From an uncultured Lachnospiraceae bacterium (GTDB taxonomy: Bacteria > Bacillota > Clostridia > Lachnospirales > Lachnospiraceae), in the NCBI GenBank assembly GCA_949012915.1, contig CARLBU010000004.1, positions 79,314 through 124,416 on the forward strand: a DNA stretch of 45,103 nt. Reading direction: 5' to 3'. A program made the position numbers and the translations under genes. Position 1 is the first letter of the stretch. Each line of letters starts with the position of its first letter. Of the stretch, positions 7,223 through 33,752 are shown in pieces. The notes under the pieces were generated by a model. It made no database searches. It had not been told where the DNA came from and worked only from the letters and a program-made list of their open reading frames with translations.

Positions 7223-7250
7223 GAGGGGGAAAGAGGATTTCGGAGGGGAC

Positions 7251-7485
7251 GCCAGAGTGCATTAGGGGTACACGGTTCCGCTCTTCGGAAAGTAAGAGGC
7301 TCTAAGACTTCTGGTGTTGGGTGTATCTAACCGGACGGATCGGGGTGCAATTCGCCCGTACAGCGGGCTAAACACACCCCTTTTTTTGCCATTCGAGAAT
7401 GGCAAAAAATCCTAATGGATCGACAGAAGTCTAAGAGCCTCTAACTTTCCTACGAAGTCACCGTGTACCCCTAATGCACTCTGGC
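7251..7485. repeat. Family-2 repeat, copy 1. A ~185-nt conserved core carrying terminators, flanked by perfect 22-bp inverted arms found only in this copy.
   Basis: The core ccggacggatcggggtgcaattcgcccgtacagcgggctaaacacaccccTTTTTTTgccattcgagaatggcAAAAAAt is also present at 33288-33527. The arms cagagtgcattaggggtacacg and cgtgtacccctaatgcactctg are exact reverse complements. Confidence 0.8.
7352..7410. terminator. Tandem intrinsic terminators inside the family-2 core. The first is GGGGTG..CACCCC followed by T7 on the plus strand; the second is a bidirectional T6-GCCATTC-GAG-GAATGGC-A6 hairpin.
   Basis: A GC-rich stem is followed by a T-run, and a perfect 7-bp hairpin is symmetrically flanked by T6 and A6. 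They lie downstream of malQ. Confidence 0.65.
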
Positions 7486-7681
7486 TGTATTATGGCACAA
7501 TTTATGTTTTGTTTTTACCTTTTGTTGTTTTTTGTTATGAAATTAGATTGATTTTGGGTGTTTGCTGGATATATTTTTTTATTGGTTGGTTTATGATTTT
7601 TTTTTCTTTTCTTTTATTTTATTTATTTATTCCAGTGTTCCGTGTTTGTTATGTGTTTTTTGTTTTTATTTTAACCTCATT

Positions 7682-7828
7682 AAGGAAGTCCCCCGCTTTC
7701 GCCTTGGCGGCTTAGAAGCGGGGGACTTCCTTGTTTCAGTGGGAGTGCAGACTCCCACTGAAAAGTTGCGGTAGCAGCTATGAGGTTATGAGCAAGTAGC
7801 GAAGCAGATTGCGAATATCCGATTTGAC
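7682..7828 (+). repeat. Family-3 repeat, copy 1: an 18-bp GC-rich hairpin (AAGGAAGTCCCCCGCTTC/GAAGCGGGGGACTTCCTT) plus a 46-nt module aggttatgagcaagtagcgaagcRgattgcgaatatccgatttgac
   Basis: The hairpin and module recur at 33648-33752 and 29487-29583 with the same hairpin orientation. In the third copy the module orientation is reversed. Confidence 0.75.
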
Positions 7829-7994
7829 TAAAAGTGTAGAAAAAAGTGTTATTTGGGATGAAAAAGTGGTATAGTAGGATAAGAATAGTTTTGTTTGCAT
7901 TTATAAATTTGCGTTTGCAGAGATAGTAGAGGATAGAAAATTGGGTTTTGATAATGGGTATTATGTTGAAAGGTGTAGAGGGGGAAGTTTGCTG

Positions 7995-8687
7995 ATGGGA
8001 GAAATAGGAATGGAATGGAATCGATATAGGATTATGATAATAGAAGATGATCAGGGGATACAGGTACAGTTAAAAAATTTATTGGCCGGAAATGGATATG
8101 AAGTGGCTACGGTTGCGGATTTTTCTAAGACGATAGAGGAATTAAAGGTTTTTGCACCGCATTTGGTTCTTTTGGATATCAAACTGCCGGAGAAGAGTGG
8201 GTTTGAATTGTGTTCGCAGATTCGGGTTTTTTCGGATATGCCGATTGTATTTGTAACGAGCAGCAATACGGATATGGATGAGTTAAATAGTATTATGCTG
8301 GGGGGAGATGCATTTATTACAAAGCCTTATAATACCGCTATTTTGCTTGCGAAGATTGCTGCTTTGCTGCGGCGGGTGTATGCTTTTAAGCAGGCGGAGG
8401 TTTTTAGATGGAATGGGGCTGTTTTGTATTTAGAAAGCAGTCGGATAGAGTATCGGGGACAAAAAGCGGAATTAACGAAAAATGAGTTAAAGATTCTTTT
8501 TTATCTTTTTAAAAATGCGGGGAAGATTTGTTCTCGTAATGATATAGTGGATTTTCTTTGGGATAATCGACTCTATATAGATGATAATGCTCTTAGTGTG
8601 AATATGACTCGGATTCGTGAGAAACTGGCAGCAATCGGTTTGAAGGATTTTATTAAGACGAAGCATAGGCAGGGGTATTTGTTATGA
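7995..8687 (+). CDS. OmpR/PhoB-family response regulator (BceR-like)
   Basis: A receiver domain (IMIIEDD..LLDIKLP) plus a winged-helix DNA-binding domain. The first ATG in the ORF is at 7941; start 7995 is chosen because it follows the SD agagggggaa. Its stop overlaps the kinase start (ATGA). Confidence 0.85.
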   Translation: MGEIGMEWNRYRIMIIEDDQGIQVQLKNLLAGNGYEVATVADFSKTIEELKVFAPHLVLLDIKLPEKSGFELCSQIRVFSDMPIVFVTSSNTDMDELNSIMLGGDAFITKPYNTAILLAKIAALLRRVYAFKQAEVFRWNGAVLYLESSRIEYRGQKAELTKNELKILFYLFKNAGKICSRNDIVDFLWDNRLYIDDNALSVNMTRIREKLAAIGLKDFIKTKHRQGYLL

Positions 8688-9706
8688 ATGGAGGACAGTA
8701 TTGGAAGAATCTGCTGCCGGTTATTTTTATCAATCTTTTGGGTATGCTGGTGCTGGCTTTGTTTTTAATGGCTAATGGGAATGTTGTTTCGGTTGTTTTG
8801 TTTATTGTAGTTGTTTGGACAGTGGTTTTTATTTTTTATGTCTGTGTTCTTTATGGTATAAGAAAAAGATATTTTCGTCAGTTGTTAGAGACGGCGGAGC
8901 AGTTAGAGGAGCGGTATTTAATACCGGAGGTGATTGCTGTGCCAAAGAGAGCAGGGGAACAGGTGTTTTATCAGATTATGAAACTGGCGGAAAAGTCGAT
9001 GCTTGAAAAGATTGGTGAGGTGCAGAGGGAGCGAAAGGAGTATAAAGAATATATTGAACAGTGGATTCATGAGGTAAAAACGCCGATTACCGCAATAAAG
9101 CTGATATGTGTAAATAATCGGTTTGAGTTTACCAGGGATTTGCTGGCGGAATTGGAAAATGTAAATCGGTTTACAGAGCAGACCCTCTATTATGCCCGCA
9201 GTGAACATACAGAAAAAGATTATTTGATTCGGGAAGTTAGGCTTGGGGATATGGTACATGAGGCGATTGGGGAGAATAAATATCTTCTTCGGCAAAGCAA
9301 TATGACGGTTCTAGTGGATGAGATGGAATATTGTGTTTATACCGATAGTAAGTGGGTGCAGTTTATTTTGAATCAGATTATTAGTAATGCGGTAAAGTAT
9401 CGTACCGAGCAGCCGGTGCTGCATTTTTTTGCAGCAGAGAAAAAGGGGCAGGTGGTTTTGTATGCAGAGGATAATGGGATGGGCATATCGAAAGGGGATT
9501 TGTGCCGTATTTTTGAAAAAGGATTTACCGGGCAGAATGGGAGGAGGGTTTCTAATTCTACTGGTATGGGGCTGTATCTTTGCAGACGTCTTTGTGATAA
9601 GTTAGGAATTGGATTGGCTGTAGATTCGGAAGATTCGGAAGAAAAGGGAACTATGGTGTCCCTTTCTTTTTATAGAAATGACTTTGTGGATGGAGTGCAG
9701 AATTGA
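8684..9706 (+). CDS. Sensor histidine kinase (BceS-like intramembrane-sensing type)
   Basis: Two N-terminal TM helices with a minimal extracellular loop, an H-box HEVKTPITAIKL, and an HATPase_c domain (..DNGMGIS.., ..GTGMGLYL..). Confidence 0.85.
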   Translation: MNGGQYWKNLLPVIFINLLGMLVLALFLMANGNVVSVVLFIVVVWTVVFIFYVCVLYGIRKRYFRQLLETAEQLEERYLIPEVIAVPKRAGEQVFYQIMKLAEKSMLEKIGEVQRERKEYKEYIEQWIHEVKTPITAIKLICVNNRFEFTRDLLAELENVNRFTEQTLYYARSEHTEKDYLIREVRLGDMVHEAIGENKYLLRQSNMTVLVDEMEYCVYTDSKWVQFILNQIISNAVKYRTEQPVLHFFAAEKKGQVVLYAEDNGMGISKGDLCRIFEKGFTGQNGRRVSNSTGMGLYLCRRLCDKLGIGLAVDSEDSEEKGTMVSLSFYRNDFVDGVQN

Positions 9707-9823
9707 TCGGATGGATCGATTCTGCACTTCTTACATTTTTGTAAGAAGTGTGTAAGGAAACTTGATACCAAAATGTTTGCAGGTTCGTTATAATAAGAGC
9801 AGAAAAAAGGAAAAGGAGAGAGA

Positions 9824-10612
9824 ATGTATATGATTTTAGAGTTGGAACATATTCAAAAATATTATGGAAATAAAGGAAATCTGACAAAAGCGATTAAAGA
9901 TATTAGTTTTTCGGTGGAAGCAGGTGAATTTCTTAGTATTATGGGAGCTTCTGGTTCCGGGAAAACAACACTGCTTAATTGTATCTCTACGATTGATACG
10001 GTAAGTGCAGGTCATATCTATTTGGATGGAACAGATATAACGGAGATAAAGCCAAAGTCGCTTGCTCGGTTTCGCAGAGAAAATTTGGGTTTTGTGTTTC
10101 AAGATTTTAATTTGTTGGATACACTGACCATTTCCGAAAATATTGCATTGGCACTGACAATTAATCGGATGCCTGCAAGGATGATTGAGAAAGCTGTTTT
10201 AGAAATGGCAGAACAGTTGAATATTTGTGATATTCTTGATAAATATCCTTATCAGGTATCTGGAGGGCAGAAGCAGCGTTGTGCCTGTACCAGGGCAATG
10301 ATTCATAAGCCGAAGCTTTTGTTAGCGGATGAACCGACCGGGGCTTTGGACAGTCATTCGGCACAGATGCTGTTATCTACGATTCAAGGGATTCATAGAC
10401 AGATTGGAACAACGATTTTAATGGTGACACATGATGCTTTTACAGCTAGTTATGCTGAGCGGATTTTATTTTTGCAGGATGGGGAAATTTTTATGGAATT
10501 GTATAAAGGGAGTGACAGCAGAAGTGCCTTTTTTCAAAAGATTTTAAATGTGCTGACTATGATGGGAGGAGGAAAGAGTCATGTATGTGAAACTGGTTTT
10601 TCGAAATGCTAA
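9824..10612 (+). CDS. ABC transporter ATP-binding protein (BceA-like)
   Basis: Walker A GASGSGKTT, signature SGGQKQR and Walker B LLLADEP. Confidence 0.9.
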   Translation: MYMILELEHIQKYYGNKGNLTKAIKDISFSVEAGEFLSIMGASGSGKTTLLNCISTIDTVSAGHIYLDGTDITEIKPKSLARFRRENLGFVFQDFNLLDTLTISENIALALTINRMPARMIEKAVLEMAEQLNICDILDKYPYQVSGGQKQRCACTRAMIHKPKLLLADEPTGALDSHSAQMLLSTIQGIHRQIGTTILMVTHDAFTASYAERILFLQDGEIFMELYKGSDSRSAFFQKILNVLTMMGGGKSHVCETGFSKC

Positions 10613-12794
10613 GCGGTCGGTAAGGGATTATTTAGTTTATGTTGTAACTATGACGATATGTGTAACGCTGTTTTATTCGTTTTTGTCTATTTCCAGCAGA
10701 TATTATAAGCCGGATATTGGAAGTGAGTATGATTTTACGATGCTTAGTGACGGAATGAAAGCGGCCGTCTGTATGATTACATTGTGTTTGGCTTTTTTAA
10801 TCTGGTTTGTGAATCGATATATGCTGCAGCGGAAGCAGAAAGAGTTTGCCCTTCAGTTGATTATGGGAATGGAGCAAAAGACGGTTGCGGGGCTTTTCTT
10901 TGCGGAAACGCTGATAATGGGAATGATTTCTATCGGACTGGGAATTTTTTTTGGTGTGTTTTGTTCTCAGTTTATTACGGCAATGTTATTGACTTCTTAT
11001 GGGAAAACGTATCAGTTGGCATGGACACTGTTTCCAGATACGGTATTGCTGACGGCAGTGTTTTTTATTTTAAGTTTTTTTGCAGTGGGAAGTTTGAATA
11101 CTTATATGATTCGAAAGACGAAAATTGTTGCGATGCTTTCGGCGGATAGAGAGAATGAGCCTGAATTGAAGAAGAGCCGTTGGATTTTTGCAGTGGTGAG
11201 GATTTTCGAAGGATTTATGCTTTGGAGACTTATAACTGGGATACGGAAGGTTTGGTTTTATTATGACAGCCGTTTTGCTGTTCCTGTACAGGTTATGTTC
11301 TGGGGGAATCTTTTTTTTCCGGCTGTTACATTAGGCTGCTTTTTATTGTGGATTGTCCGAAGGAAAAAAAGAAAGGATTCTTCCTTACTTTTGGGACTGT
11401 TGGTGTGTTCGGTTTGTAATGCTTTTTTGGCAGCCAGTGTACCGGGTATAATCCATCAATATTATCTGCCGTTGGGGTCGGGGATAAAAAATCAATATCT
11501 GGTGTTTCTTTTGGCGGATCTGCTGTTTTTTATCTGTGATTTGATCTATTTGGCAAGCGGTCAGATTGCCGCATGGAAGGAAAAGTCACCGGAACATAAG
11601 TATAATGGAGAAAATTTGTTTTTTTGGGGACAGATTATTTCGAAATTAAATACCACCAGTAAGACAATGACGCTGATCAGTATTACTTTAGTACTTGCGA
11701 TTGTGATGTTTATTGCGGCACCTATTTTAACAGGTTGGGCTTCTGGATATTTGGACAGCCGTTCGATGTATGATGTGCAGATTTTTTCCAGATATAATCA
11801 GGTCTATCAAGAAGAATATTTGCCGCAGGATGACTATTTGCTGGCAAGTGATTTTTTGGGAGAGCATAGGATCGAGATTGCTTCTGATTGTACCTTTTAT
11901 CTGTATTTACCTAAGAAAGAAGAGTTTCATAATCGGAAGAAATATGAATTTCCTGCTGTGGCGATTTCTCTTAGTGATTATAATAGGATACTGACGATGT
12001 TAGGGAAAGAACCGATTTTTTTAGAGGAGAATGAATTTACAACACAGTGGAAATCCGTTGCAGCAAAGGAGGAACGGGACGATTTTCTTAGAGAACATAC
12101 CCATATCCTAACAGATGCCGGGGAATTGACGCTTTCAGAAGAGTCTTATTATCAGCATGAAATCGGACAAACGGTTTACAATTCCTATACCAATGTTTTG
12201 TATGTCTTTCCAGATTCGATTTGTGAAAGTTTGCTTCCGGTTATGCGGGATCGCTATATTCTAACAGAGAGAGGGATTTCTTATGCGGATGCTTGTAAAT
12301 TGGAAAGGGAATTTATAAAAGAATATCCCGAGCAGACAGAGAATGGCACAGCATATGGAATTCGTTTGCGTACCCTGCAGATAAATGGTACAAAGGCCAA
12401 TAATTTTGTTCTGCAGGCGGGGATGATTTATGCTGCCGTTGTGTTGATGGTAATCTGTCTTACCATACTTTCTCTGCAGCAGCTTTTGGATGCAGGGCAG
12501 TATCGCTATCGTTTTTCCGTACTTCGAAAATTGGGAGTGGAAGAGCAGAGAATCAAAAGACTTGTATTTCGGCAGTTAGGAGTGTGGTTTGGACTTCCCG
12601 TTGTTGTTGCAGTAGGGGCGGCTGTCGTTGTGCTTGTTTACTTTGTTCAGACGATATCGGCAGAAATTTCGGCATATATTGGGAGTAGGGCACTGCTGAT
12701 ACAGATAGGTGCAACTGGGGGAATTCTTATGCTGCTGCTGATTTGTTATTTTATTAGTACTTGGATTTTATTTCAGTACTCTATTAGTGAATGA
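10581..12794 (+). CDS. ABC transporter permease, FtsX family (BceB-like, large extracellular domain)
   Basis: 737 aa; the N-terminus MYVKLVFRNAKRSVRDY is typical of BceB-type permeases. It has ~10 TM segments with a long loop, and overlaps the ATPase gene. Confidence 0.85.
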   Translation: MYVKLVFRNAKRSVRDYLVYVVTMTICVTLFYSFLSISSRYYKPDIGSEYDFTMLSDGMKAAVCMITLCLAFLIWFVNRYMLQRKQKEFALQLIMGMEQKTVAGLFFAETLIMGMISIGLGIFFGVFCSQFITAMLLTSYGKTYQLAWTLFPDTVLLTAVFFILSFFAVGSLNTYMIRKTKIVAMLSADRENEPELKKSRWIFAVVRIFEGFMLWRLITGIRKVWFYYDSRFAVPVQVMFWGNLFFPAVTLGCFLLWIVRRKKRKDSSLLLGLLVCSVCNAFLAASVPGIIHQYYLPLGSGIKNQYLVFLLADLLFFICDLIYLASGQIAAWKEKSPEHKYNGENLFFWGQIISKLNTTSKTMTLISITLVLAIVMFIAAPILTGWASGYLDSRSMYDVQIFSRYNQVYQEEYLPQDDYLLASDFLGEHRIEIASDCTFYLYLPKKEEFHNRKKYEFPAVAISLSDYNRILTMLGKEPIFLEENEFTTQWKSVAAKEERDDFLREHTHILTDAGELTLSEESYYQHEIGQTVYNSYTNVLYVFPDSICESLLPVMRDRYILTERGISYADACKLEREFIKEYPEQTENGTAYGIRLRTLQINGTKANNFVLQAGMIYAAVVLMVICLTILSLQQLLDAGQYRYRFSVLRKLGVEEQRIKRLVFRQLGVWFGLPVVVAVGAAVVVLVYFVQTISAEISAYIGSRALLIQIGATGGILMLLLICYFISTWILFQYSISE

Positions 12795-12902
12795 AATAGA
12801 ATATTTGATTTGTATAATGTGTTGTAAAATACAGAAAATTTAGGAAAAAGATGAAAAATTTTCTTGAATTTTATAAGATATGATAGATATGTATAAAAAT
12901 AT

Positions 12903-12931
12903 TTGCTTTTGTTTATGCTGTTTAGTAGAAT
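12903..12931 (+). promoter_or_regulatory. Candidate sigma-A promoter TTGCTT-17-TAGAAT reading rightward into the invertible segment
   Basis: Judged from the hexamers and 17-bp spacer only. It lies just upstream of the left recombination site. Confidence 0.3.
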
Positions 12932-12960
12932 AGAAAAGGAAGATACTTTATAAAAAATAA

Positions 12961-12995
12961 AAATACAACACTTGTTAGTAAAATGTTGTATTTTT
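12961..12995. other. Left recombinase core-type site: two ~14-bp inverted arms around the 7-bp spacer GTTAGTA
   Basis: aaatacaacacttGTTAGTAaaatgttgtattttt. Its reverse complement is nearly identical to the site at 13748-13784, so the two sites are in inverted orientation. Confidence 0.6.
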
Positions 12996-13015
12996 ATATT
13001 TTTTATATCGGTGTT

Positions 13016-13044
13016 TTTATAAAATACTTTATAGCGTTTTTGAA
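13016..13044 (-). promoter_or_regulatory. Candidate outward-facing promoter on the minus strand (TTCAAA-17-TATAAA) at the left end of the invertible segment
   Basis: Read on the minus strand: TTCAAAaacgctataaagtatttTATAAA. In the present orientation it reads leftward, away from csrA-flagellin. After inversion it would read toward them. Confidence 0.3.
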
Positions 13045-13073
13045 TTTTTTTAAATTTTTTATTTTTCAAGGGA

Positions 13074-13116
13074 AATGCCGCTTATCCTCTGTCGATAAGC
13101 GGCATTTTTTTTTGTG
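13074..13116 (+). terminator. Intrinsic terminator: GCCGCTTATC-ctctgtc-GATAAGCGGC followed by T9
   Basis: A perfect 10-bp stem is followed by a 9-T run on the plus strand. It lies inside the invertible segment, between bceB and the recombinase 3' end. Confidence 0.75.
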
Positions 13117-13122
13117 ATTGGA

Positions 13123-13713
13123 TTAGAGTGTAATTTTTAAATACACTTCATCTCTTTCGTCTTGTTCAATACTTAAATATCGCTTGGTAATGCTGTAGGA
13201 GGAGTGATTGTAAAGATCCATTAAAAGGGCTGGAGGGGTTCCCTGTTTCCACGCATGATAACCGAATGTCTTCCTTAGAGAGTGGCAGCTGATATGTTGA
13301 TCCAGTCCAGATGCTTTGGCAGCAGTACAGATAATTCGGTAGGCTTGAGAACGACTGATTGGCTCATTCTTTCCTTTCTGACTTAAGAAGAGATACTGCT
13401 CTTTTTCATAGGGTTTTTCCTGGAAGGAATACGAGAGGTAGTTTTTTAGGGTGGTGCAGATAGAGCGGTTTAATGCAATCGTGCGGGATTTTCCAGTCTT
13501 TTGTTCTATTACTTCTAAATGTTTTTTCATGGTTTTAGTATGGTCATCATAGATATCGTTCCATTTTAATGTGAGAATATCGGAGATTCGCAGTGCTGTA
13601 TTTAGTCCCAATATAATCAGGGTATAGTTTCTTGGCTGAGGTTTTTGCAGCAAATAATAATTTTTAAATTGGTTCAGTGCATCTTTGCTTTTAATAGGCT
13701 GTGTTGTGCTCAT
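13123..13713 (-). CDS. Small tyrosine site-specific recombinase (catalytic domain only, FimB/FimE-sized)
   Basis: 196 aa with catalytic residues in order: R in ..LNTALRISD.., K in ..KTGKSR.., HxxR in ..HSLRKTFG.., H in ..LYNHSS.., and Y in ..ITKRYL... There is no N-terminal core-binding domain. Confidence 0.8.
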   Translation of the reverse strand: MSTTQPIKSKDALNQFKNYYLLQKPQPRNYTLIILGLNTALRISDILTLKWNDIYDDHTKTMKKHLEVIEQKTGKSRTIALNRSICTTLKNYLSYSFQEKPYEKEQYLFLSQKGKNEPISRSQAYRIICTAAKASGLDQHISCHSLRKTFGYHAWKQGTPPALLMDLYNHSSYSITKRYLSIEQDERDEVYLKITL

Positions 13714-13747
13714 GATAGATCCTCCGTTCGTTGAATTTTGCTTTCTT

Positions 13748-13784
13748 AAAAATGCAACATTTTACTAACAAATGTTGCATTTTC
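13748..13784. other. Right recombinase core-type site: aaaatgcaacattt-TACTAAC-aaatgttgcatttt
   Basis: 14-bp inverted arms flank a 7-bp asymmetric spacer. It is the inverted partner of 12961-12995, and the two bracket the recombinase gene. Confidence 0.6.
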
Positions 13785-13826
13785 ATATTGGCACAGAAGA
13801 CATGGAGAAAACAAGGAGGTTTTTAG

Positions 13827-14081
13827 ATGTTAAGACTGACTCTAAGTACAGAAGAATACCTGATGATAGGGGATAATATTAAGATTGCATTTTTAGGAGG
13901 CAGTAAAAGCCATCTTCGAATTCTGATTGATGCACCAAAGGAAGTCGGTGTAGTGAGAAGTAAAGTGATGGAACAGAACGTGCCGGAAGAAGAGAGGGGA
14001 TCTCTTCCTCAATATTATGCAGAACCGGAATTGGCAGAACGGTTTCGAAAAAAGAAATTTTCTTCGAAGGCAGGAAGCTAA
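13827..14081 (+). CDS. csrA: Carbon storage regulator CsrA
   Basis: The N-terminus MLRLTLSTEEYLMIGDNIKIAFLGG..LRILIDAPKEVGVVRSKV matches the CsrA fold consensus (MLVLTRK..IGDDI..GIDAPK). It is immediately upstream of flagellin. Confidence 0.85.
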   Translation: MLRLTLSTEEYLMIGDNIKIAFLGGSKSHLRILIDAPKEVGVVRSKVMEQNVPEEERGSLPQYYAEPELAERFRKKKFSSKAGS

Positions 14082-14345
14082 AAGAAGAAGAGAGGTTATT
14101 TATTATGGTTAATAACCGAAAGCAGTCCGCAACAATCGGGCCCAAAAGCGGGATGCGATTCGGATTATTAAATTCGGAAAGAAATCAAAAGAAATGATAT
14201 TTGGTGGAAATCCGAGATAGATTTTTTAAGAAATGAGGTAAGACTTTTCTTACCAAAGCGGCAAATGGAGTTGACCGCATAACAAAGAAACGGCAAGGGA
14301 AAAGAAAAATGATGAAACAAGCCGTATTACAAGGAGGTATATTTT

Positions 14346-15929
14346 ATGGTAGTACAACACAATCTTACAGCAATGAATTCTAATCGTATGCTAGGTATCA
14401 CAACCAAGGCTCAGGCAAAATCCACAGAAAAATTATCATCTGGTTATAAGATCAATCGTGCAGCAGACGATGCAGCAGGTTTGGCAATTTCCGAAAAAAT
14501 GAGAAAGCAGATCCGAGGACTGACACAGGCTTCTTCTAATGCACAGGACGGAATCAGTGCCGTACAGACAGCAGAAGGTGCATTGACAGAAGTACAGGAT
14601 ATGCTTCAGAGAATGAATGAATTGGCAGTAAAGGCAGCAAATGGAACGAATTCTTCTTCTGATAGAGATGCGATTCAGGCTGAGATCGATCAGTTGGTAA
14701 CAGAAATCGATCGTGTATCGGAGACAACGAAGTTTAATGAAACTTATTTGTTAAAAGGGGATGTAAATGCTGCAAAAGACACAAATTTCCAATATAAAGA
14801 AGTAGATGTGATTAGCCAAGACCTTTACTATGTAGAAGATAATACCGTTAAGACTTTATCGAAAGGGACGTTGAAAACAGCAGTTGATTCAACAAAAGTA
14901 TATTATAGTGACAGTACAGGTGCAACCTATGGAGTAGCGATTGCATCTAGTGATTCTGGTAATTTCTTAAATAATTCGGAAGCAGTTTTCACGGATAGTA
15001 CAGGTAAGTATTTGAAGAAAGTGGGAGATGAATATTATCAAGTTGCTTCTGGGGAAGCATATGATTCAACAATAACTTATTATTCTTCTAGTGCTGGAAC
15101 AGGTGATATAAAGAGCCAAGCAGTTGCAATTGCTAGTAATACTATAACTGATACTGGTGCACATTATAAGCTGAAGACAGAAGTATATGATTCAGATGGA
15201 AATAGGAAAGAGATAGGGACAGATATTGGTGCGACTGCTGCAGATATATCGAAGTATTATTCTACGCTTGCTCCTGTAAAACTTGCTGTAGATTCTGTCG
15301 CTTATTCTGACTATACAAGTAAGGGCGTAGTTCAATTTATTGATAAGGATGGTAATGAGATTGCTGCGAATGGTTTAGATAAATATATTAACAACAACGG
15401 TAAGTTAGATCCTAATGCAGAACTGTATTTAAAGACAGGAGAGGGTGCAACTGACCGTCAGTTGGCAACACAGGCTGACGTGGATAGATTGTTAAGTTAT
15501 ACAGATAAATTTGATGTAGGTGCTTTAACTTTGAATCTTCATGTAGGTGCAGATGCTACAACCAATAATCAGATTTCTCTTGATATAAAGTCTATGAGTG
15601 CTAAGGCAATTGGTGTCACTGGTTTAAAGGTAAATGGAGAAGATGATACAAATGCATTAAATGCAATTGAAACAATTAAAGCGGCATTGAATAAGGTTTC
15701 TGATCAAAGAGCTGCCCTTGGTGCTGTTCAAAACCGTTTAGAGCATACAATTAATAACTTAGATAATGTAGTGGAGAATACGACAAGTGCTGAAAGTCAA
15801 ATTCGTGATACGGATATGGCTACTGAAATGGTAAGATATGCGAATAATAATATTTTGGCTCAAGCTGGTCAATCTATGTTAGCTCAAGCAAATCAGAGCA
15901 ATCAAGGAGTTCTTTCTCTTCTTGGTTAA
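14346..15929 (+). CDS. Flagellin
   Basis: A conserved N-terminal D0/D1 region (..[24 protein letters not shown]..) and C-terminal region (..[25 protein letters not shown]) flank a long variable central domain. Confidence 0.95.
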
Positions 15930-16038
15930 TAGTAATTGTTGTAAAAAACAGATTAGATTAAATGGTATGAATATCTATAGGCGGTGCGGTTTTTACACCG
16001 CCTATTGTTATTTATTCTTTATTTTGTAGGAGTATAGT

Positions 16039-17244
16039 ATGAAGCTATTTATTTATGATTGGAATTTTATTACAAAGTATGATTTGTATAGAGCAATGCA
16101 GAAACAGGGGATTGAATATGATTTATTTAATTCAAAGTCAAATCCTAGAGTAAATTCACAAAGTAAGCAGTTTCGGGAGGATTTGGAAAAAGCCTTAGAT
16201 AATAAAAAATATGATGCAATTTTTTCTATTAATTTTTTTTTGGAGTTGGCAGAGGCAGCACATGCAAGAAATATACTTTATATTTGTTGGACATATGATA
16301 GTCCAGCCTTAGGCATAGCAAATGAAACTCATTTTTTTGACACCAATCGTATTTTTTTATTTGATTCTTCGGAATATGAGGAATTTCAGGAACATGGAGT
16401 AAAAAATATTTTTTATTATTTACCTTTGGCAGCTGATGCTAGACGTTTAAGTCGAATGAAACCTACTCCCATGGGAAGGATGAAATATCATGCAGATATT
16501 TCTTTTGTTGGGCAGCTTTATCAATCAGATATGGATAAAATGTTTCCCCTATTTGATGAATATGGTGCAGGCTATATTGCAGCACTGATTAATATACAGT
16601 TAAATGTTTATGGTACGAATTTTATTCAAGAATTAATTAATGAAAATCTTATTAAACGTCTATGCAATCAAAAAGTAACAGAAGCTTTATTGAAAAATTT
16701 GAATCATAATTTTTTTCATGATGTAGAAGAAGTAAAAAGTTGGGGATTGATTGCTTTTCTTTTAAAGGCAGTAACCAATAAAGAGAGAATACTTTTACTT
16801 ACACTATTGGCAAAATATTATCATGTAAAGTTGTTTACCATAAATAGTCCGAAACTTCCAAATGTAAAGATATGTGAACCTGTAGATTATAGATATGATA
16901 TGCCGCTTGTATTTAAGTGTAGTAAAATAAATTTAAATATTACATTGCGAAATATTCGCCGGGGTATCCCTCAGCGAGTGATTGATATTATGGGCTGTCA
17001 TGCATTAGCAATGACAAATTATCAAGAAGATTTAAATGAATATTTTAAAGACGGATAAGATCTTTTGATATATAGTTCTATGGAAGAGGCATTAGATAAG
17101 TGCAAATATTATCTAAGTCATGAAAAGGAAGCAGAAAAAATTAGACAAAACGGTTATAAAATTGTCAAAGATAAGTTTAGTTATGAACATCAATTAAATC
17201 GAATATGGGAACTCTCAGGTTTGAAAAACAAGTTATCAAAATAA
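16039..17244 (+). pseudogene. CgeB-like glycosyltransferase (DUF3880 family) interrupted by an in-frame TAA at 17056-17058. The same frame continues to 17244 and encodes the conserved C-terminus.
   Basis: Before the stop the translation is ..NEYFKDG. After it, ..DLLIYSSMEEALDKCKYYLSHEKEAEKIRQNGYKIVKDKFSYEHQLNRI aligns with the paralog's FKRDETLVYFTNPAEF..YQKLIEGHTYWHRI. The TAA sits where a Glu (GAA) is expected. Confidence 0.6.
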
Positions 17245-17267
17245 AGACAGATAAGCGAGGAATTATT

Positions 17268-18422
17268 ATGAAGCTAACATATCTTATATGGGGCTATCCT
17301 TATGATAAAGCTATTCTAAAAGCATGGAAAGAGATGGGAATTTTGGTAAATACAATTCTGCTTTCACATGAATTGATACAGAATTGGGAAGAAAAAAAGG
17401 AAATACAACAGAAAGAAAAAGTGGAATCTCTTTTGCTTTCCTTGAAAGAGCAGATTCGAGCAGCAGCGGGTGATATGGTGTTTTCTGTTAATTTTTTATC
17501 GTTTATATCGGATTTTTGCCAAAGAGAAGCCATTCCTTATTGCAGTTGGATCTTACAGCTTCCTAATTTTGATTTATATACAGCTTCTGTGCGGAATGGA
17601 TATAATTATTTTTTTGTATGTGATAGTTATTTGGTAGAAAAACTATGGCAATTAGGAATTACAAATGCCTTTTTTCTGCCTGATGCTGTAGAAGTAGATA
17701 GTGTACGAGAAATTGTGCCTATGGAAAGAGAAGTATGTTTTCTTGCAAAATGCCCAGAGGATGTTTTAAATACAAAGGAAATGTCCATTTACAGTAAAGG
17801 CTATCTAGATGCTTTTATTCATGCACAAAGGGTATTATATGGGGCATATATTCTAGAAAATGGATTATTGCTTCGGGTACAACAGGAGTTTTTAAAGGGA
17901 AATATCCTTCCAGAGAATCTTCTTTTAGAAATGCAGAAACTTTTTGTGGCAGATCGATATTTTGCACCTGTATGTACTAGAATACAGCAGCAAATATTTT
18001 TACAAAATTTTGCTTCCATTATGACAATTTATTCTAACGGAGAGTTTCCAGATTGTAATTCTAAAAAAAAGGCTTTGGTGGAAGATGAAATAGCGAGGAA
18101 GAAAATTTATGCCGGAAAAGAATTTACTTTGGTATTAGCACCTCATACTTTACATAATGGTATTCCAAGGGATACGTTGGAAGTAATAGCAGCAGGAGGT
18201 TTTCCTATTGTTGGATTTCAGAGGGATTATGCTTATTTTTTTAAGAGAGATGAAACATTAGTATATTTTACAAATCCTGCAGAGTTTTCACGTGCGATTG
18301 TACGATATGGAAATCATATAGAAGAAAGAGAACGTGTAAAGGAGGCGGCATATCAGAAACTGATAGAGGGACATACTTATTGGCATCGAATTGCTGCAAT
18401 ATTAGAGGTATGGAAAAAGTAA
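17268..18422 (+). CDS. CgeB-like glycosyltransferase family protein (flagellin-modification locus)
   Basis: A 385-aa paralog of the upstream gene, starting at MKLTYLIWGY after the SD gcgaggaa. The conserved C-terminus is ..VYFTNPAEFSRAIVRYGNHIEERERVKEAAYQKLIEGHTYWHRI. Confidence 0.65.
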   Translation: MKLTYLIWGYPYDKAILKAWKEMGILVNTILLSHELIQNWEEKKEIQQKEKVESLLLSLKEQIRAAAGDMVFSVNFLSFISDFCQREAIPYCSWILQLPNFDLYTASVRNGYNYFFVCDSYLVEKLWQLGITNAFFLPDAVEVDSVREIVPMEREVCFLAKCPEDVLNTKEMSIYSKGYLDAFIHAQRVLYGAYILENGLLLRVQQEFLKGNILPENLLLEMQKLFVADRYFAPVCTRIQQQIFLQNFASIMTIYSNGEFPDCNSKKKALVEDEIARKKIYAGKEFTLVLAPHTLHNGIPRDTLEVIAAGGFPIVGFQRDYAYFFKRDETLVYFTNPAEFSRAIVRYGNHIEERERVKEAAYQKLIEGHTYWHRIAAILEVWKK

Positions 18423-18445
18423 TAGGAAAAGTAAAGGAGAAAAAG

Positions 18446-20620
18446 ATGAATATTTATGTTTGTTCCCCGCCAAGAGTTACTACCGGGGGGGTAGAACTGC
18501 TTCAACAGCTTGTTTTTGAACTGAATAAACAGCATTTTGGAATAGCAAAATTATTGTATATAGATAATACTCCTGAAATGGGGCATCCCGTTCCAGAACA
18601 ATATGAAAAATATAAAAATCCTTTTTTGGTAAATACTTATAATGAAAAGGATGCTATTATTGTTTTGCCGGAAGTGATGGCTGTTATGGCAGAAACTCAA
18701 TTTAGAAGATGTTCTGTTATTATATGGTGGGAAAGTGTAGACAATTATTTTTTAGCAAATCCTGTTGAAAAATGGTATAGCTTTAAAAAAAATAAATCAA
18801 TATTGCATATGACACAATCCATGTATGCAAAAGATTTTTTAAAAAAAGCAGGCGTTTCTGAAGAACAGATTTTTGAGGTATCCGATTATTTGGGAGAAGA
18901 TTTTTTTACAGAAGAAGTATTGTTGGATTCTTCGAAACGTAAGTTAAATGTTCTTTATAATCCGAAAAAAGGTCTTGATTTTACAAATAAATTGATAGCA
19001 TTTTCGCCAAATCTGCATTGGATTCCAATTGCCCAAATGTCACCAGATGAGGTTTCCCATCTTATGCTGGAAAGTCGGGTATATATTGATTTTGGAAATC
19101 ATCCGGGCAAAGATCGGATGCCAAGGGAAGCAGCAATCAGCGGTTGCTGCATTGTAACAGGCAGGAATGGAAGTGCAGATTACTATGAAGATATTCCGAT
19201 TATGGATCAATATAAGTTTAAACGTACAATAGCAGATGTACCAGCAATTTGTTCCTGTATAGAACAGTTAGTAAATGAATATGATACCTATATTTCAGAT
19301 TTTGAATATTATCGTTCTTTTATTCGGGCAGAGAAATCAAAATTTGAAAAAGCAGTAAGCGATTTACTTTCTATTTTATTAGAACATAATCCATTTAGAA
19401 ATTCAGAAGAAATAAATGTCATACAAAAATTGGAAGATAGGATTCAGATTGCAGTATATGGAACAGAAAATTATAGTATAACGGCGAAAAATTTAATTGA
19501 AAATTTATATAATATGTATCTTCAGGATTTAGATCCCAATAATTATAAATTTGAAGTTACACATTTTGTTGTAGAAAAACCTTTTGTATCGATGCAAAAA
19601 GGAGTACCAGTTATAGAGTTAAAAAAGTTTGTCACTCTATATAAGGAACAAAAAGTAGCAGCAATCGTAATTCCAACTGCTGCTTATATAGGACAATCCT
19701 TTTTAATTACCGATTTGATTCAGGCAGGGGTGGATATTAATGATATCTACTGTATAGGAAGAAATTTATTAAAACAAAATCAATATGCTAAAGAAGAATT
19801 ATCACATTTACTGGTACCTTATTTAGATTGTCCCTATTTACCTTATCTGGAATATCATGTTGTAGATCATTGTAACTTAAATTGTAAAGCATGTGAGCAT
19901 TATGCTCCATTAGTAGAAAAAAAGAAAATTACCAATTATGAACAGTTTAAGAAAGATTTCTTTCAGTTAAAATCATTTATCAAAGATATTGGAATAATCA
20001 GAATTATGGGCGGGGAACCTTTATTAAATAAAGAATTAAAAAAATTTCTTCTTTTAACAAAAGAAGTTTATCCAGATTCTAAAATAGCCGTTGTAACCAA
20101 TGCTCTTTTATTAAAGCAAATGGAAGATGAACTATTTTATTTGATGAAGATAGTAAACGGTTATTTTTCTATTTCTTGGTATCCACCAATGAAGGATAAA
20201 ATAGAAGAAATCAAAGAATTTTTAAATAAAAAGGGGGTATCTTATTGGGTTTCGCCTTTAATGGAAAATTTTACAATGAAGCAGAATGTTTCGGGAGATA
20301 ATGATAAAACAGAACAATTTTTCCGATGCCTACAGGCTCACTATCATAATTTATATGAGGGAAAAATAGCGGCGTGCTTTCTGCCGTTTGTAACCCCTTA
20401 TTTTAATCAAACCTTTCAAAAAGCAATTCCATGTGACGGTGCGGTTGATTTATATCAGCCGAATCTGACACTCTGTCAGATAAAACAAGCCTTACTAACT
20501 CCAATGAACCGCTGCAGATATTGTTCACCGCCTGTTTCTGTTGCCTGGCAGCAAGCCAATCCAAACTTTCCGAAACTAGAGGACTGGATTATAGAGAGAA
20601 AAGCAGAGTATTCCAAATAA
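18446..20620 (+). CDS. Multidomain enzyme: N-terminal GT-B-like glycosyltransferase region, a Rossmann-like middle region, and a C-terminal radical SAM domain
   Basis: Starts MNIYVCSPP after the SD aaaggag. The GT-like motif is ..SRVYIDFGNHPGKDRMPREAAISGCCIVTG... The radical SAM CxxxCxxC motif is DHCNLNCKACEH, followed by ..IMGGEPLLN.. and a Cys-rich C-terminus. Confidence 0.65.
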   Translation: MNIYVCSPPRVTTGGVELLQQLVFELNKQHFGIAKLLYIDNTPEMGHPVPEQYEKYKNPFLVNTYNEKDAIIVLPEVMAVMAETQFRRCSVIIWWESVDNYFLANPVEKWYSFKKNKSILHMTQSMYAKDFLKKAGVSEEQIFEVSDYLGEDFFTEEVLLDSSKRKLNVLYNPKKGLDFTNKLIAFSPNLHWIPIAQMSPDEVSHLMLESRVYIDFGNHPGKDRMPREAAISGCCIVTGRNGSADYYEDIPIMDQYKFKRTIADVPAICSCIEQLVNEYDTYISDFEYYRSFIRAEKSKFEKAVSDLLSILLEHNPFRNSEEINVIQKLEDRIQIAVYGTENYSITAKNLIENLYNMYLQDLDPNNYKFEVTHFVVEKPFVSMQKGVPVIELKKFVTLYKEQKVAAIVIPTAAYIGQSFLITDLIQAGVDINDIYCIGRNLLKQNQYAKEELSHLLVPYLDCPYLPYLEYHVVDHCNLNCKACEHYAPLVEKKKITNYEQFKKDFFQLKSFIKDIGIIRIMGGEPLLNKELKKFLLLTKEVYPDSKIAVVTNALLLKQMEDELFYLMKIVNGYFSISWYPPMKDKIEEIKEFLNKKGVSYWVSPLMENFTMKQNVSGDNDKTEQFFRCLQAHYHNLYEGKIAACFLPFVTPYFNQTFQKAIPCDGAVDLYQPNLTLCQIKQALLTPMNRCRYCSPPVSVAWQQANPNFPKLEDWIIERKAEYSK

Positions 20621-20627
20621 AAAAATT

Positions 20628-20656
20628 GACAAAGCCTTTTTCCTATGTTATACTTT
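20628..20656 (+). promoter_or_regulatory. Sigma-A-type promoter TTGACA-17-TATACT upstream of rpsO
   Basis: Consensus hexamers and spacer, ~95 nt upstream of the rpsO start. Confidence 0.5.
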
Positions 20657-20752
20657 TAACTGTTGTGATATTTTAACCTTTACTCAGGATATGGCTGCTC
20701 CAACCTGTGCTTAGTAGAGGGGATAAGAAAATTTTAGGAGGAATACTGAATT

Positions 20753-21019
20753 ATGATTTCAAAGGAAAAGAAAGCCGAATTAATTGCAACTTATGGAAGA
20801 ACACCAAATGATACAGGTTCTCCAGAGGTACAGATTGCCATTTTAACATTTCGAATCAATGAATTAACCGAACATTTAAAGAACAATCCAAAGGATCATC
20901 ATTCCAGACGCGGATTATTACAGATGGTTGGACAGAGACGTGGATTATTGGACTATTTAAAAAAGACAAATCTGGATGGTTATCGTGCATTAATTGAAAA
21001 GTTAGGAATCAGAAAGTAA
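20753..21019 (+). CDS. rpsO: 30S ribosomal protein S15
   Basis: 88 aa (..[30 protein letters not shown]..). Confidence 0.95.
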
Positions 21020-21322
21020 GAAAAGCGGCGGCATGCAGGATTCTGGGTGTCTGTCGTTTTATGGGGCGGAGTAATCCGCCCTATATTTGTGAAAGAAAAT
21101 TGGAAAAGAAAATTAGGAAAAAACAAAAGACTCCCAAAGGAAAAAAGTTAGCCGAGACCACTGAAAAGGACAGAAAAAAGAAATAAAGAAATAAACAAAT
21201 AAACATCTAATAAGAAATAACGAAATAGTCCTATTTTCTGTATTTTTCAGTAGTTTCGGAACTCTCCGGCGGGACAGACAGATTAGAAAATTAAGAAAAT
21301 AAGATTCCGCAGACAGCGGAGA

Positions 21323-23466: not shown

Positions 23467-23618
23467 GGTATGGAAAGGGAAATTCCCTGCTGGGGCCGTT
23501 TGCACTAAGGCTTTCTCGCAGCGGACACATAAGGCACGAAAGTACCGTGCCTAAGTGCCGGCGGAAAGCAATACCCCTGCAGAGAATTCCCTTTCCATAC
23601 CTACTGTATATACCGACC
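23467..23618 (+). repeat. Family-1 palindromic repeat, copy C
   Basis: Outer stem ggtatggaaagggaaattccctgc pairs with gcagagaattccctttccatacc. Core is conserved. Tail is tactgtatataccgacc. Confidence 0.8.
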
Positions 23619-23712
23619 TGTTGGCAGATAAATCCTGTTTTGATTTTGTATTCTTAATAAACGGTGAATAGATATAGAGTAGAGATATGCTTATGCTATT
23701 GATTTGATATTA

Positions 23713-23760: not shown

Positions 23761-23835
23761 AGAATATTAAGGCGAATCGTTTAGTTGAAAATATGGATAA
23801 ATTTTATACAGCAGAGATGGTGCAAAATGAATAGG

Positions 23836-23985
23836 AAGGAACAGACAGCTTGTATCGAAGGAGGTTTCTTTGCAGGGGTATTGCTTCCCGCCGGCACTTA
23901 GGCACGGTATTTTCGTGCCTTATGTGTCCGCTGCGAGGAAGCCTTAGTGCAAACGGCCCCAGCAAAGAAACCTCCTTCGATACAG
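23836..23985 (-). repeat. Family-1 palindromic repeat, copy D (inverted relative to C)
   Basis: Outer stem ctgtatcgaaggaggtttctttgc pairs with gcaaagaaacctccttcgatacag, a perfect 24 bp. Core is conserved. The tail faces inward. Confidence 0.8.
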
Positions 23986-29486: not shown

Positions 29487-29583
29487 AAGGAAGTCCCCCC
29501 GCTGCTTTCTGGCTTAGAAGGGGGACTTCTTTGATAGGGTCAAATCGGATATTCGCAATCCGTTTTGTTACTTGCTCATAACC
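29487..29583. repeat. Family-3 repeat, copy 3: a GC-rich hairpin plus the module in inverted orientation
   Basis: aaggaagtccccccgctgctttctggcttagaagggggacttctttg is followed by gtcaaatcggatattcgcaatccgttttgttacttgctcataacct, which is the reverse complement of the module seen at 7782-7828. It lies downstream of rnfB. Confidence 0.7.
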
Positions 29584-29698
29584 TATACTGAAATCGAATG
29601 GGATATCGGTTCTAAATTTTTTTATACTTAGAATCGGCATCCTATTTTATTTAAAAACCTACTTTGAATCAGATTATTAGTAATAAGGAGAAAAGAAT

Positions 29699-33201: not shown

Positions 33202-33287
33202 GGGACATGTTGAAAGGGAGGGGAGCGGAGAGGAAGTTTTATGTTTTATGGCTGGAATAAAGAGTGGGGTGTGTCAAGACGGACGCT

Positions 33288-33527
33288 AGAGTTGGGAAGC
33301 AATATCTTTCTGTTGTTCCGCTCTACGGAAAGTAAGAAAATCTAAGGCTTCTGCATTTACCTGTATCCAACCGGACGGACCGGGGTGCAATTCGCCCGTA
33401 CAACGGGCTAAACACACCCCTTTTTTTGCCATTCGAGAATGGCAAAAAATCCTAGAGATCGACAGAAGCCTAAGATTTTCTAACTTTCCTCCGAAGTCAC
33501 AACAGAAAGATATTGCTTCCCAACTCT
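33288..33527. repeat. Family-2 repeat, copy 2. Same terminator-bearing core as copy 1, with different, perfectly inverted 29-bp arms.
   Basis: Arms agagttgggaagcaatatctttctgtt and aacagaaagatattgcttcccaactct are exact reverse complements and unrelated to the copy-1 arms. The core is >90% identical to 7275-7465. Confidence 0.8.
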
Positions 33528-33647
33528 GGCTGTTTTCTGCTGCTTGTAATATTTTGTATCTTGCCTGTTCCTCCTGTGCTTTTTGCTGGCAGGGGCAGAG
33601 GCAGTGGGGCATAAAATAGTTGAAACCGCCGAACCTCGGCACAATGG

Positions 33648-33752
33648 TCTGGCGGCTTAGAAGCGGGGACTTCCTTGATGAGGTTATGAGCAAGTAGCGA
33701 AGCGGATTGCGAATATCCGATTTGACTTTCGTATCTTTCCGTATTCGCAATC
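33648..33752 (+). repeat. Family-3 repeat, copy 2 (3' half of the hairpin only, plus the module and a downstream hairpin)
   Basis: tggcggcttagaagcggggacttccttg-atg-aggttatgagcaagtagcgaagcggattgcgaatatccgatttgac, followed by ..tattcgcaatc, which pairs with gattgcgaata. Confidence 0.7.

Follow-up and report, generated by a model that had tools for sequence, protein, structure and literature searches.

A dispersed palindromic repeat with TwoAYGGAY-like architecture and a hypervariable closing stem in mouse-gut Lachnospiraceae

The stretch of DNA analysed here (the window; 45,103 nt, positions 79,314 to 124,416 of contig CARLBU010000004.1) belongs to an uncultured Lachnospiraceae bacterium and fits among the metagenome-assembled genomes (MAGs) of mouse-gut Lachnospiraceae. 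It contains two copies of a 230–250-bp intergenic repeat that folds back on itself and may point either way with respect to genes. Copy 1 is 29 nt past the stop codon of a 4-alpha-glucanotransferase gene (malQ) and has genes for an OmpR-type response regulator and its kinase downstream. Copy 2 lies between a gene for a Na/Ca exchanger and a convergent gene of the major facilitator superfamily (MFS). We interpret the repeat, with a probability of about 65%, as a dispersed palindromic element of TwoAYGGAY-like architecture whose variable stem evolves by templated copying from one arm to the other.

The foldback at copy 1 is real and far beyond chance. Its 248-nt region folds with −143 kcal/mol as plus-strand RNA, −146 kcal/mol as minus-strand RNA and −83 kcal/mol as DNA, which corresponds to z scores of −15.1, −15.2 and −16.2 against shuffled sequences and bears out the long foldback structure described in the original prediction. 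The perfect inverted arms of copy 1 span 26 nt (7251–7276 and 7460–7485) rather than the 22 bp first assigned to them, with 183 nt between them. The arms of copy 2 span 32 nt (33285–33316 and 33499–33530) and include a single T·G at arm position 3; the 29-bp arms reported earlier are the perfect run that remains. Between the arms, the two copies share 90% identity across 140 nt, as predicted for the near-identical core, and 81% across another 57 nt. Two other descriptions of the arms needed revision. The arms had been placed outside the element, yet conserved sequence common to both copies encloses them on the left (GGACGCYAGAGT) and on the right (ACTCTGGCTGT). They had also been considered unrelated between copies, which holds for the middle 15–21 bp alone; the outer 7–8 bp and the inner TGT/ACA match.

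From the outside in, the element begins with a conserved 7-bp clamp (GCYRGAG/CTCYRGC). Next come a Watson-Crick duplex that is hypervariable in sequence and constant in length, giving arms of 26 or 32 nt, a conserved asymmetric internal loop (TTCCGCTCT / CCGAAGTCAC), three short helices with conserved unpaired A residues between them and a nearly invariant core of two hairpins. The features of the two copies are given below. The flanks come from a profile built with 37 copies carrying 26-nt arms and 56 copies carrying 32-nt arms, L136 is a contig from another strain (L numbers are our labels for loci and contigs), and RF01731 is the Rfam model of the TwoAYGGAY motif.

7237–7250, plus strand: left conserved flank ATTTCGGAGGGGAC, consensus ..cC.aaGaGGAC; conservation begins about 12 nt left of the arm
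7251–7257, plus strand: left half of the outer clamp, GCCAGAG, paired with 7479–7485; GCYRGAG in essentially all 130 copies measured
7258–7276, plus strand: hypervariable segment of the left arm, perfectly paired with 7460–7478
7277–7286, plus strand: left part of the asymmetric internal loop, with the conserved sequence TCCGCTCTTC, not complementary to 7451–7459; lost through the conversion in L136
7287–7313, plus strand: left half of the inner stem, with helices of 7, 9 and 9 bp, conserved unpaired A7294 and A7304 between them, and compensatory changes by RNAalifold
7314–7341, plus strand: junction of 15 variable nt followed by conserved AACCGGACGGATC, from column identities
7342–7387, plus strand: core hairpin A and T7 (GGGGTG..GCCCG-loop-CGGGC..CACCCC), terminator-like on the plus strand only
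7382–7409, plus strand: core hairpin B, T6 + GCCATTCGAGAATGGC + A6, a 12-bp stem from the folds and the covarying lengths of the T and A runs
7410–7423, plus strand: junction TCCTAATGGATCGA, moderately conserved; its AYGGAY word, the second of two, is degenerate in many copies
7424–7450, plus strand: right half of the inner stem, with unpaired A7433 and A7443
7451–7459, plus strand: right side of the asymmetric internal loop, TACGAAGTC (family CCGAAGTC); template of the conversion in L136
7460–7478, plus strand: hypervariable segment of the right arm
7479–7485, plus strand: right half of the outer clamp, CTCTGGC
7486–7511, plus strand: conserved flank on the right, as in copies with 26-nt arms, TGTATTATGGCACAATTTATGTTTTG (family TGTATTGTyCCACAATyTACGTTT), from the positional profile
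33285–33530, plus strand: copy 2, of the 32-nt-arm type, with the core between arms 33285–33316 and 33499–33530
7280–7457, minus strand: match of copy 1 to RF01731 TwoAYGGAY, full model 1–168, 66.7 bits, E 7.3e-11
33320–33496, minus strand: match of copy 2 to RF01731 TwoAYGGAY, 68.8 bits, E 1.8e-11

Scanning genome contigs with an exact 21-mer of the core returned at least 148 matches at at least 119 loci. Of the 119 loci listed, a single MAG (MGBC128194) contributes 105 and another one 14; many of the copies are at the ends of contigs. The copy number thus exceeds 100 in at least one mouse-gut Lachnospiraceae genome (MGBC128194). We measured the closing stem in 130 copies among the matches listed and found the clamp GCYRGAG...CTCYRGC at its boundaries throughout. 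Arm length takes few values (32 nt in 58 copies, 26 nt in 37, 33 nt in 7 and 25 nt in 6), and copies 1 and 2 are typical members of the 26-nt-arm and 32-nt-arm types, respectively. The original prediction had named two observations that would refute it, arms that recur with other cores and arms that are imperfect in most copies, and both were made. Mismatches were absent in 28 copies (22%), single in 44 and double in 31, so that 78% of the copies are imperfect. Furthermore, the arms fall into related subfamilies across loci and genomes, and arm types recur with other cores. For example, over the 15 variable arm positions compared, the arms of L065 and L096, at unrelated loci of another genome (MGBC128194), are 10% different from those of copy 1.

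These measurements bear on the idea that the core inserts with an inverted duplication of flanking DNA or into the centre of a long pre-existing palindrome. In favour of insertion, the middle parts of the arms differ between the two copies, and each is found once in the window, where neither variable arm recurs at three or fewer mismatches. However, family-conserved sequence encloses the variable segment on both sides, arm length is fixed at 26 or 32 nt, the arms form related subfamilies across loci and genomes, and most copies are imperfect. The conserved brackets, the quantised arm length and the near-identical arms at unrelated loci exclude both a duplication of flanking DNA and a pre-existing palindrome. 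An insertional origin of the arms is therefore extremely improbable. Subfamilies with distinct terminal repeats, the third mechanism offered in the original prediction, come closest to the pattern, with copy 1 representing the 26-nt-arm type and copy 2 the 32-nt-arm type.

The arms vary in sequence and retain their pairing. Watson-Crick pairs account for 3187 of the 3356 arm pairs (95%), with three or four pair types at many columns. The mismatches comprise 46 that would be G·U wobbles on the plus strand, 76 that would be G·U wobbles on the minus strand and 47 others; G·U would make up about 1–2% of the arm pairs on either strand. This symmetry between strands is unlike the usual outcome of RNA-level selection. 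The inner helices are likewise almost exclusively Watson-Crick, and 120 A·A 1x1 mismatches were counted in the inner stem across 80 copies. RNAalifold predicted 83 pairs in an alignment of 43 copies, 39 of them with double compensatory changes. Pairwise identity per column ranges from 0.3 to 0.5 in the middle of the arm versus 0.95 to 0.99 in the core hairpins, even at unpaired bases; hairpin A has 95–100% identity in all copies, its unpaired bases included.

Core distance between copies is about 0.12 and independent of arm distance (r = 0.15–0.35), with equal core divergence for copies that have identical or unrelated arms. No near-identical copies were present among those compared. Thus, the copies are old and their pairing was kept in place. 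The age of the copies is relevant to whether the repeat is a non-autonomous transposon akin to a MITE (miniature inverted-repeat transposable element), with arms that are the terminal inverted repeats of subfamilies and are perfect through the recent insertion of both copies. Many features of the repeat suit a MITE: it is small, non-coding, intergenic and present in many copies, its terminal clamp (GCYRGAG/CTCYRGC) and flanks are conserved, and it has no orientation bias relative to genes. In relatives that are 84–90% identical, malQ and the Na/Ca exchanger gene also have no copy of the element downstream. Yet copies that are old by core divergence cannot owe the perfection of their arms to youth, and the variable part of the arm is internal, with conservation at both ends. 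Orthologues of MalQ and of the Na/Ca exchanger led to no clean pre-insertion site; the 84–90% identical relatives differ in synteny and have other neighbouring genes. Furthermore, a search confined to the 119 loci listed (760 kb) detected no multi-copy transposase among 874 open reading frames (ORFs), and collections of plasmid, phage and viral sequences lack the element. We consider a MITE-like transposon quite unlikely. The ends of the element are asymmetric and run into variable tandem repeats.

The most direct evidence for copying between arms comes from strain comparisons. L136 is a 121-kb contig (ERZ13657768) with 47x coverage whose MalQ is 99% identical to that in the window, and its 718-nt intergenic region is nearly identical save for one tract. 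Positions 7277–7294 of the window (TCCGCTCTTCGGAAAGTA) read GAC-TTCGTAGGAAAGTT in L136, which is the exact reverse complement of the right side of the same copy, including a copy-specific TAC. The difference amounts to six substitutions and one deletion within 19 nt, each of which creates complementarity, and it lengthens the inverted repeat from 26 nt perfect to 62 nt at 98%. The changes are clustered in one arm and the rest of the locus is almost unchanged. Such a pattern is characteristic of a quasipalindrome template switch, and the L136 tract counts as one templated conversion between arms. A second and independent conversion, with a different tract end, is present in another genome (L045). 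Single changes were found as well. L152, L153 and L155 have an uncompensated G-to-A change in the left arm of copy 1, and copy 2 in the window has a C-to-T change that restores a pair at which three sister strains have C·A. Hence, arm perfection is transient within one species.

These events suggest how the arms may be maintained. The copy-specific perfect arms would be the hypervariable duplex of the closing stem, in which one arm is occasionally recopied from the other at the DNA level, keeping complementarity while the sequence drifts. The likely route would be template switching within the hairpin during replication, that is, quasipalindrome correction. Each mismatch would be either erased or fixed in both arms, which would keep the pairs Watson-Crick on both strands and prevent a build-up of G·U. 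Template switching, rather than selection alone, is likely the main force acting on this duplex. The original prediction had argued that gradual compensatory drift did not make the arms, and the conversions between strains agree with it, through a mechanism other than those it proposed.

The conversions resemble the quasipalindrome template-switch mutations of the Ripley model, in which one event changes a cluster of bases in one arm so that it exactly complements the other, making the arms of the inverted repeat uniform. Template switching can create and maintain hairpins (PMC8794818), and the mechanism is also documented in PMC5941160 and PMC8604942. Template switching is a kind of mutation rather than a family of elements; here it appears to act recurrently on a whole repeat family, which would explain the family-wide covariation.

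Several observations weigh against this interpretation. Only two multi-nucleotide conversions turned up in about 128 copies and the strain comparisons; in each of them the right arm was the template for the left, and each comes from a metagenome assembly. A true fold-back artefact was found at the end of contig L148, which we rejected as a third conversion. A de Bruijn graph artefact is unlikely for L136, where it would need a strand switch back over just 9 shared bases. Selection on pairing, whether in RNA or DNA, could yield the same covariation and is not exclusive with template switching. Furthermore, the quantised arm length and the invariant core imply selection on the element, so the neutral model covers only the variable duplex. 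Nothing found accounts for the multiplication of the family: the 760 kb surveyed at the loci had no multi-copy transposase, and none of the copies compared was recent. In the metagenome collection the core is confined to 6 contigs, and a scan there for more converted copies gave zero matches. Chimeric copies with left and right halves from different copies are present in L143 (3291–3816), which also has a different downstream gene, and in L145. The contigs L143, L145 and L148 have about 2.5x coverage, and the chimeras reflect recombination between copies or repeat-induced misassembly. We did not consider contigs of such coverage trustworthy and set both chimeras aside as evidence.

What holds the rest of the element constant is probably selection, with the clamp, loop and core serving as a putative protein recognition site under a spacing constraint. 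Gene conversion between copies is presumably an alternative to selection for a binding partner in holding the clamp, the loop, the unpaired A residues, the core and the length of the stem. A bolder and unlikely explanation is that the element is the substrate of undescribed hairpin-specific machinery, either a transposase or recombinase of single-stranded DNA or an RNA-processing system, that recognizes the core and the asymmetric loop. The duplex of 19 or 25 bp, free in sequence and perfectly Watson-Crick, would then either measure a distance like a molecular ruler or arise anew through self-templated synthesis at each round of processing, and RNA motifs of the TwoAYGGAY type would represent a new class of mobile or self-maintaining DNA hairpin elements. 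The combination of quantised stem length, free sequence and invariant core provides a handle for a binding-partner search.

The architecture, a long P1 stem around two hairpins, is that of TwoAYGGAY without its AYGGAY loops. Four copies scored above the gathering threshold of RF01731 (43 bits): the two window copies (66.7 and 68.8 bits) and two copies in L053, from another genome (64.5 and 70.8 bits), all of them on the strand opposite the terminator. The default gathering-mode filters of Rfam miss both window copies. A lax search over 281 nt also misses copy 1, which reaches 66.7 bits in a lax search over 801 nt, and in an Rfam search over 60 kb only 2 of about 16 copies survived the filters. 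Standard annotation will under-call the family. The motif was named for the AYGGAY sequence in its two terminal loops, which read AUGGAU in canonical members, and its P1 stems can be very long, with an example that has just 2 mismatches in 24 bp (Weinberg et al., 2010; PMC2864571). The original alignment also included five copies with shared flanks from one Psychromonas genome (PMC2864571). Like TwoAYGGAY, the element has a long P1 stem with few mismatches that closes two adjacent hairpins, as the folds and the 39 covarying pairs indicate, and both are found in Clostridiales and gut metagenomes in multiple copies per genome.

The element departs from TwoAYGGAY in its loops, stem and copy number. 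AYGGAY is absent from the terminal loops, which on the strand matched by Rfam are UCUCGA-like and CUGUA-like, and the loop positions of the model align to unrelated 7-nt inserts in the alignment of copy 2. The AYGGAY words of the element are located instead in the junctions, at 7335–7340 (ACGGAT) and 7415–7420 (ATGGAT), on the opposite strand. The P1 stem extends about 30 bp past the model and contains the conserved asymmetric internal loop, and copy number exceeds 100 per genome. The absence of AYGGAY loops led us to treat the element as a structural relative or variant of TwoAYGGAY and not as a bona fide member. Four 11–12-mers of the core had no match in the supplementary alignments of Weinberg et al., which are gapped and partial and hence uninformative on this point.

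The Rfam matches could also mean that the minus strand encodes a candidate small RNA (sRNA) of the TwoAYGGAY class, in which case RNA-level purifying selection and compensatory substitutions would keep the P1 stem and template switching would be incidental. The four scores (64.5–70.8 bits) are always on the strand opposite the terminator, the minus strand has no internal terminator, and the stem lengths fit the description by Weinberg et al. Conservation of the core even at unpaired bases is also consistent with an RNA gene. So is the internal loop, which is rich in purines and GA on the minus strand (GACUUCGUA / GAAGAGCGGAA) and recalls the tandem G·A pairs remarked on for the TwoAYGGAY stem (PMC4333381); no specific tandem-GA geometry could be assigned to it. 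Furthermore, the right flank of the 26-nt-arm type, inspected by eye on the minus strand, reads TGnCATAAT about 7 nt before the arm. However, a promoter scan found none on the minus strand. Read as minus-strand RNA, the arms have G·U pairs as rarely as A·C (76 versus 46 of the 3356 arm pairs), unlike RNA stems under selection. The eponymous loops are absent, a generic long-stem structure can supply much of the model score, and it would be unusual for a genome to have over 100 sRNA genes. An sRNA gene thus explains the Watson-Crick-only pattern less well than arm-to-arm copying does and is possible but rather doubtful.

Two terminators had been predicted in the core. The first, GGGGTG (7342–7347)...CACCCC (7375–7380) followed by T7 (7381–7387), is present in copy 1. 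Hairpin A resembles intrinsic (Rho-independent) terminators in having a G+C-rich basal stem and then T7, on the plus strand only. The second, a bidirectional terminator with the motif T6-GCCATTCGAGAATGGC-A6 (7382–7409), is there as a motif but not as a terminator. The T run is 5′ and the A run 3′ on both strands, and the two pair with each other to form an extended 12-bp stem. The T run exceeds the A run by one in every copy (T7/A6, T6/A5 or T5/A4). Unlike intrinsic terminators, the element also has invariant bases in its internal loop, random orientation relative to genes and reversed T and A tracts in hairpin B. A simple terminator scan called neither hairpin.

Gene orientation points in the same direction. 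The left neighbour gene is co-oriented with the element in 49 cases and opposite in 58, and a separate count of both neighbours in 61 copies gave 20 in tandem co-oriented, 19 in tandem anti-oriented, 8 convergent and 14 divergent arrangements. Element orientation relative to neighbouring genes is random. Therefore, the element is not simply a gene terminator or a 5′ untranslated region (UTR) element, and we rejected a terminator function selected at gene ends. Coding capacity was rejected too. A 21-codon ORF in the core on the minus strand (MAKKGVCLARCTGELHPDPSG) is disrupted by variants in A/T-run length, and the short plus-strand ORFs that begin in the arm are disrupted by arm hypervariability and run-length variants. 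A tRNA/tmRNA scan of the window found none.

The repeat has parallels in other families of dispersed hairpins. Bacterial interspersed palindromic repeats and MITEs such as REP/BIME, REPIN, ERIC, Correia, RUP and bcr1 (reviewed in PMC3184786) are similarly short, non-coding, intergenic, abundant and able to form hairpins; they commonly make up mosaics with other repeats, and terminators or promoters are present in some. In contrast to those families, whose terminal repeats are conserved, the element has a nearly invariant core and a stem of fixed length with a hypervariable middle. All copies are old. A search of the loci, which was not exhaustive, showed neither a multi-copy transposase nor a multi-copy gene of RAYT type, and no target duplication was recognized at the asymmetric ends of the element. 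We rejected membership in the REP/REPIN group because the conserved part is a core of about 180 nt and not REP units of 20–40 nt, and because the middle of the stem varies. Integron attC sites offer another parallel, as they conserve structure while the stem sequence varies; their outer boxes and unpaired bases are conserved and are read by protein on folded single-stranded DNA. The element is much longer (235–250 nt), however, and lacks a GTTRRRY/RYYYAAC box, a cassette array and an integrase. We rejected it as an attC site, since its ends read GCCAGAG...CTCTGGC and its copies are dispersed beside housekeeping genes such as malQ. A phage or plasmid origin was rejected, since the plasmid and phage collections had no match and the core did not match any viral contig. 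A role of the arms as guides or spacers was likewise rejected: viral contigs contain no exact match to either variable arm, and the rest of the window contains none at up to three mismatches. We found nothing relevant in the literature on this repeat in Lachnospiraceae.

These findings bear on the annotation of structured RNAs. TwoAYGGAY has been an orphan since 2010, and its close structural relative here is a high-copy dispersed repeat with strict Watson-Crick pairing on both strands. This pattern argues for a DNA-level process, and annotators should not assume an sRNA. Family-wide covariation is possible without RNA-level selection, a caveat for covariation-based RNA discovery. The strain comparison provides a clean natural example of template switching making and keeping a long hairpin in a bacterial repeat family. 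From a practical standpoint, assemblies break at the repeat, which may also give rise to chimeric contigs or rearrangements and yields spurious gene calls. For example, a 154-aa ORF spans copy 2 and the adjacent repeat (33286–33750, minus strand) and is annotated as a gene in public assemblies (L141, 3524–3988) without a Pfam hit; it is probably spurious.

Some copies of the element deviate in length or arrangement. A longer variant of about 325 nt has an insertion of about 75 nt in core hairpin A and a loop of AUGGAA type in hairpin B, on the strand in the sense of the terminator (L008, L009, L019, L020, L025, L049, L061, L064, L069, L080, L093 and L097). The TwoAYGGAY model gives no match to this variant with its inserted hairpin. 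Close pairs of copies, 58–616 bp apart, are always convergent, with their right flanks face to face (L002, L017, L018, L024, L031, L035, L053, L074, L078, L082, L114, L115 and others), and most combine one 26-nt-arm and one 32-nt-arm copy. Homologous spacers in some of these pairs (L036, L077, L018 and L102) suggest a composite unit of about 700 bp.

The regions around the copies have peculiarities of their own. In L127–L129, whose MalQ is 90% identical, malQ directly precedes rpsO and pnp, while in the window about 14 kb (7223–21322), with a two-component system, ATP-binding cassette (ABC) genes and others, lies between malQ and pnp (at 21323). Synteny breaks coincide with the intergenic regions that carry the repeat. 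To the right of copy 1, positions 7486–7670 form a T-rich, strand-asymmetric tract of low complexity (ATTTT x6.8 and TTTGTTT x3.3 by TRF). The same position in the other genome has tandem repeats of 35–62 nt that re-use the flank motif TTCCACAATcTAC (L002, L055, L078, L053, L041 and L017).

Two further repeat families are present in the window. A second structured family occurs at 7672–7832, 33620–33727 and, inverted, 29539–29584, and adjoins many copies of the main element in MGBC128194. It has a closing helix (AACCTCAT/ATGAGGTT) around three hairpins (−88 kcal/mol, z −9.7), and its 3′ 50 nt occur three times in the window. Its similarity to the Rfam family Clostridiales-1 is weak (17–18 bits, threshold 48). 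The other, family 1 of the original prediction, comprises four copies of about 140–155 nt (228–381, 982–1135, 23483–23622 and 23830–23969), each containing a 31-nt hairpin of its own. The copies form two inverted pairs, and a gene for a GNAT acetyltransferase is flanked by one of the pairs.

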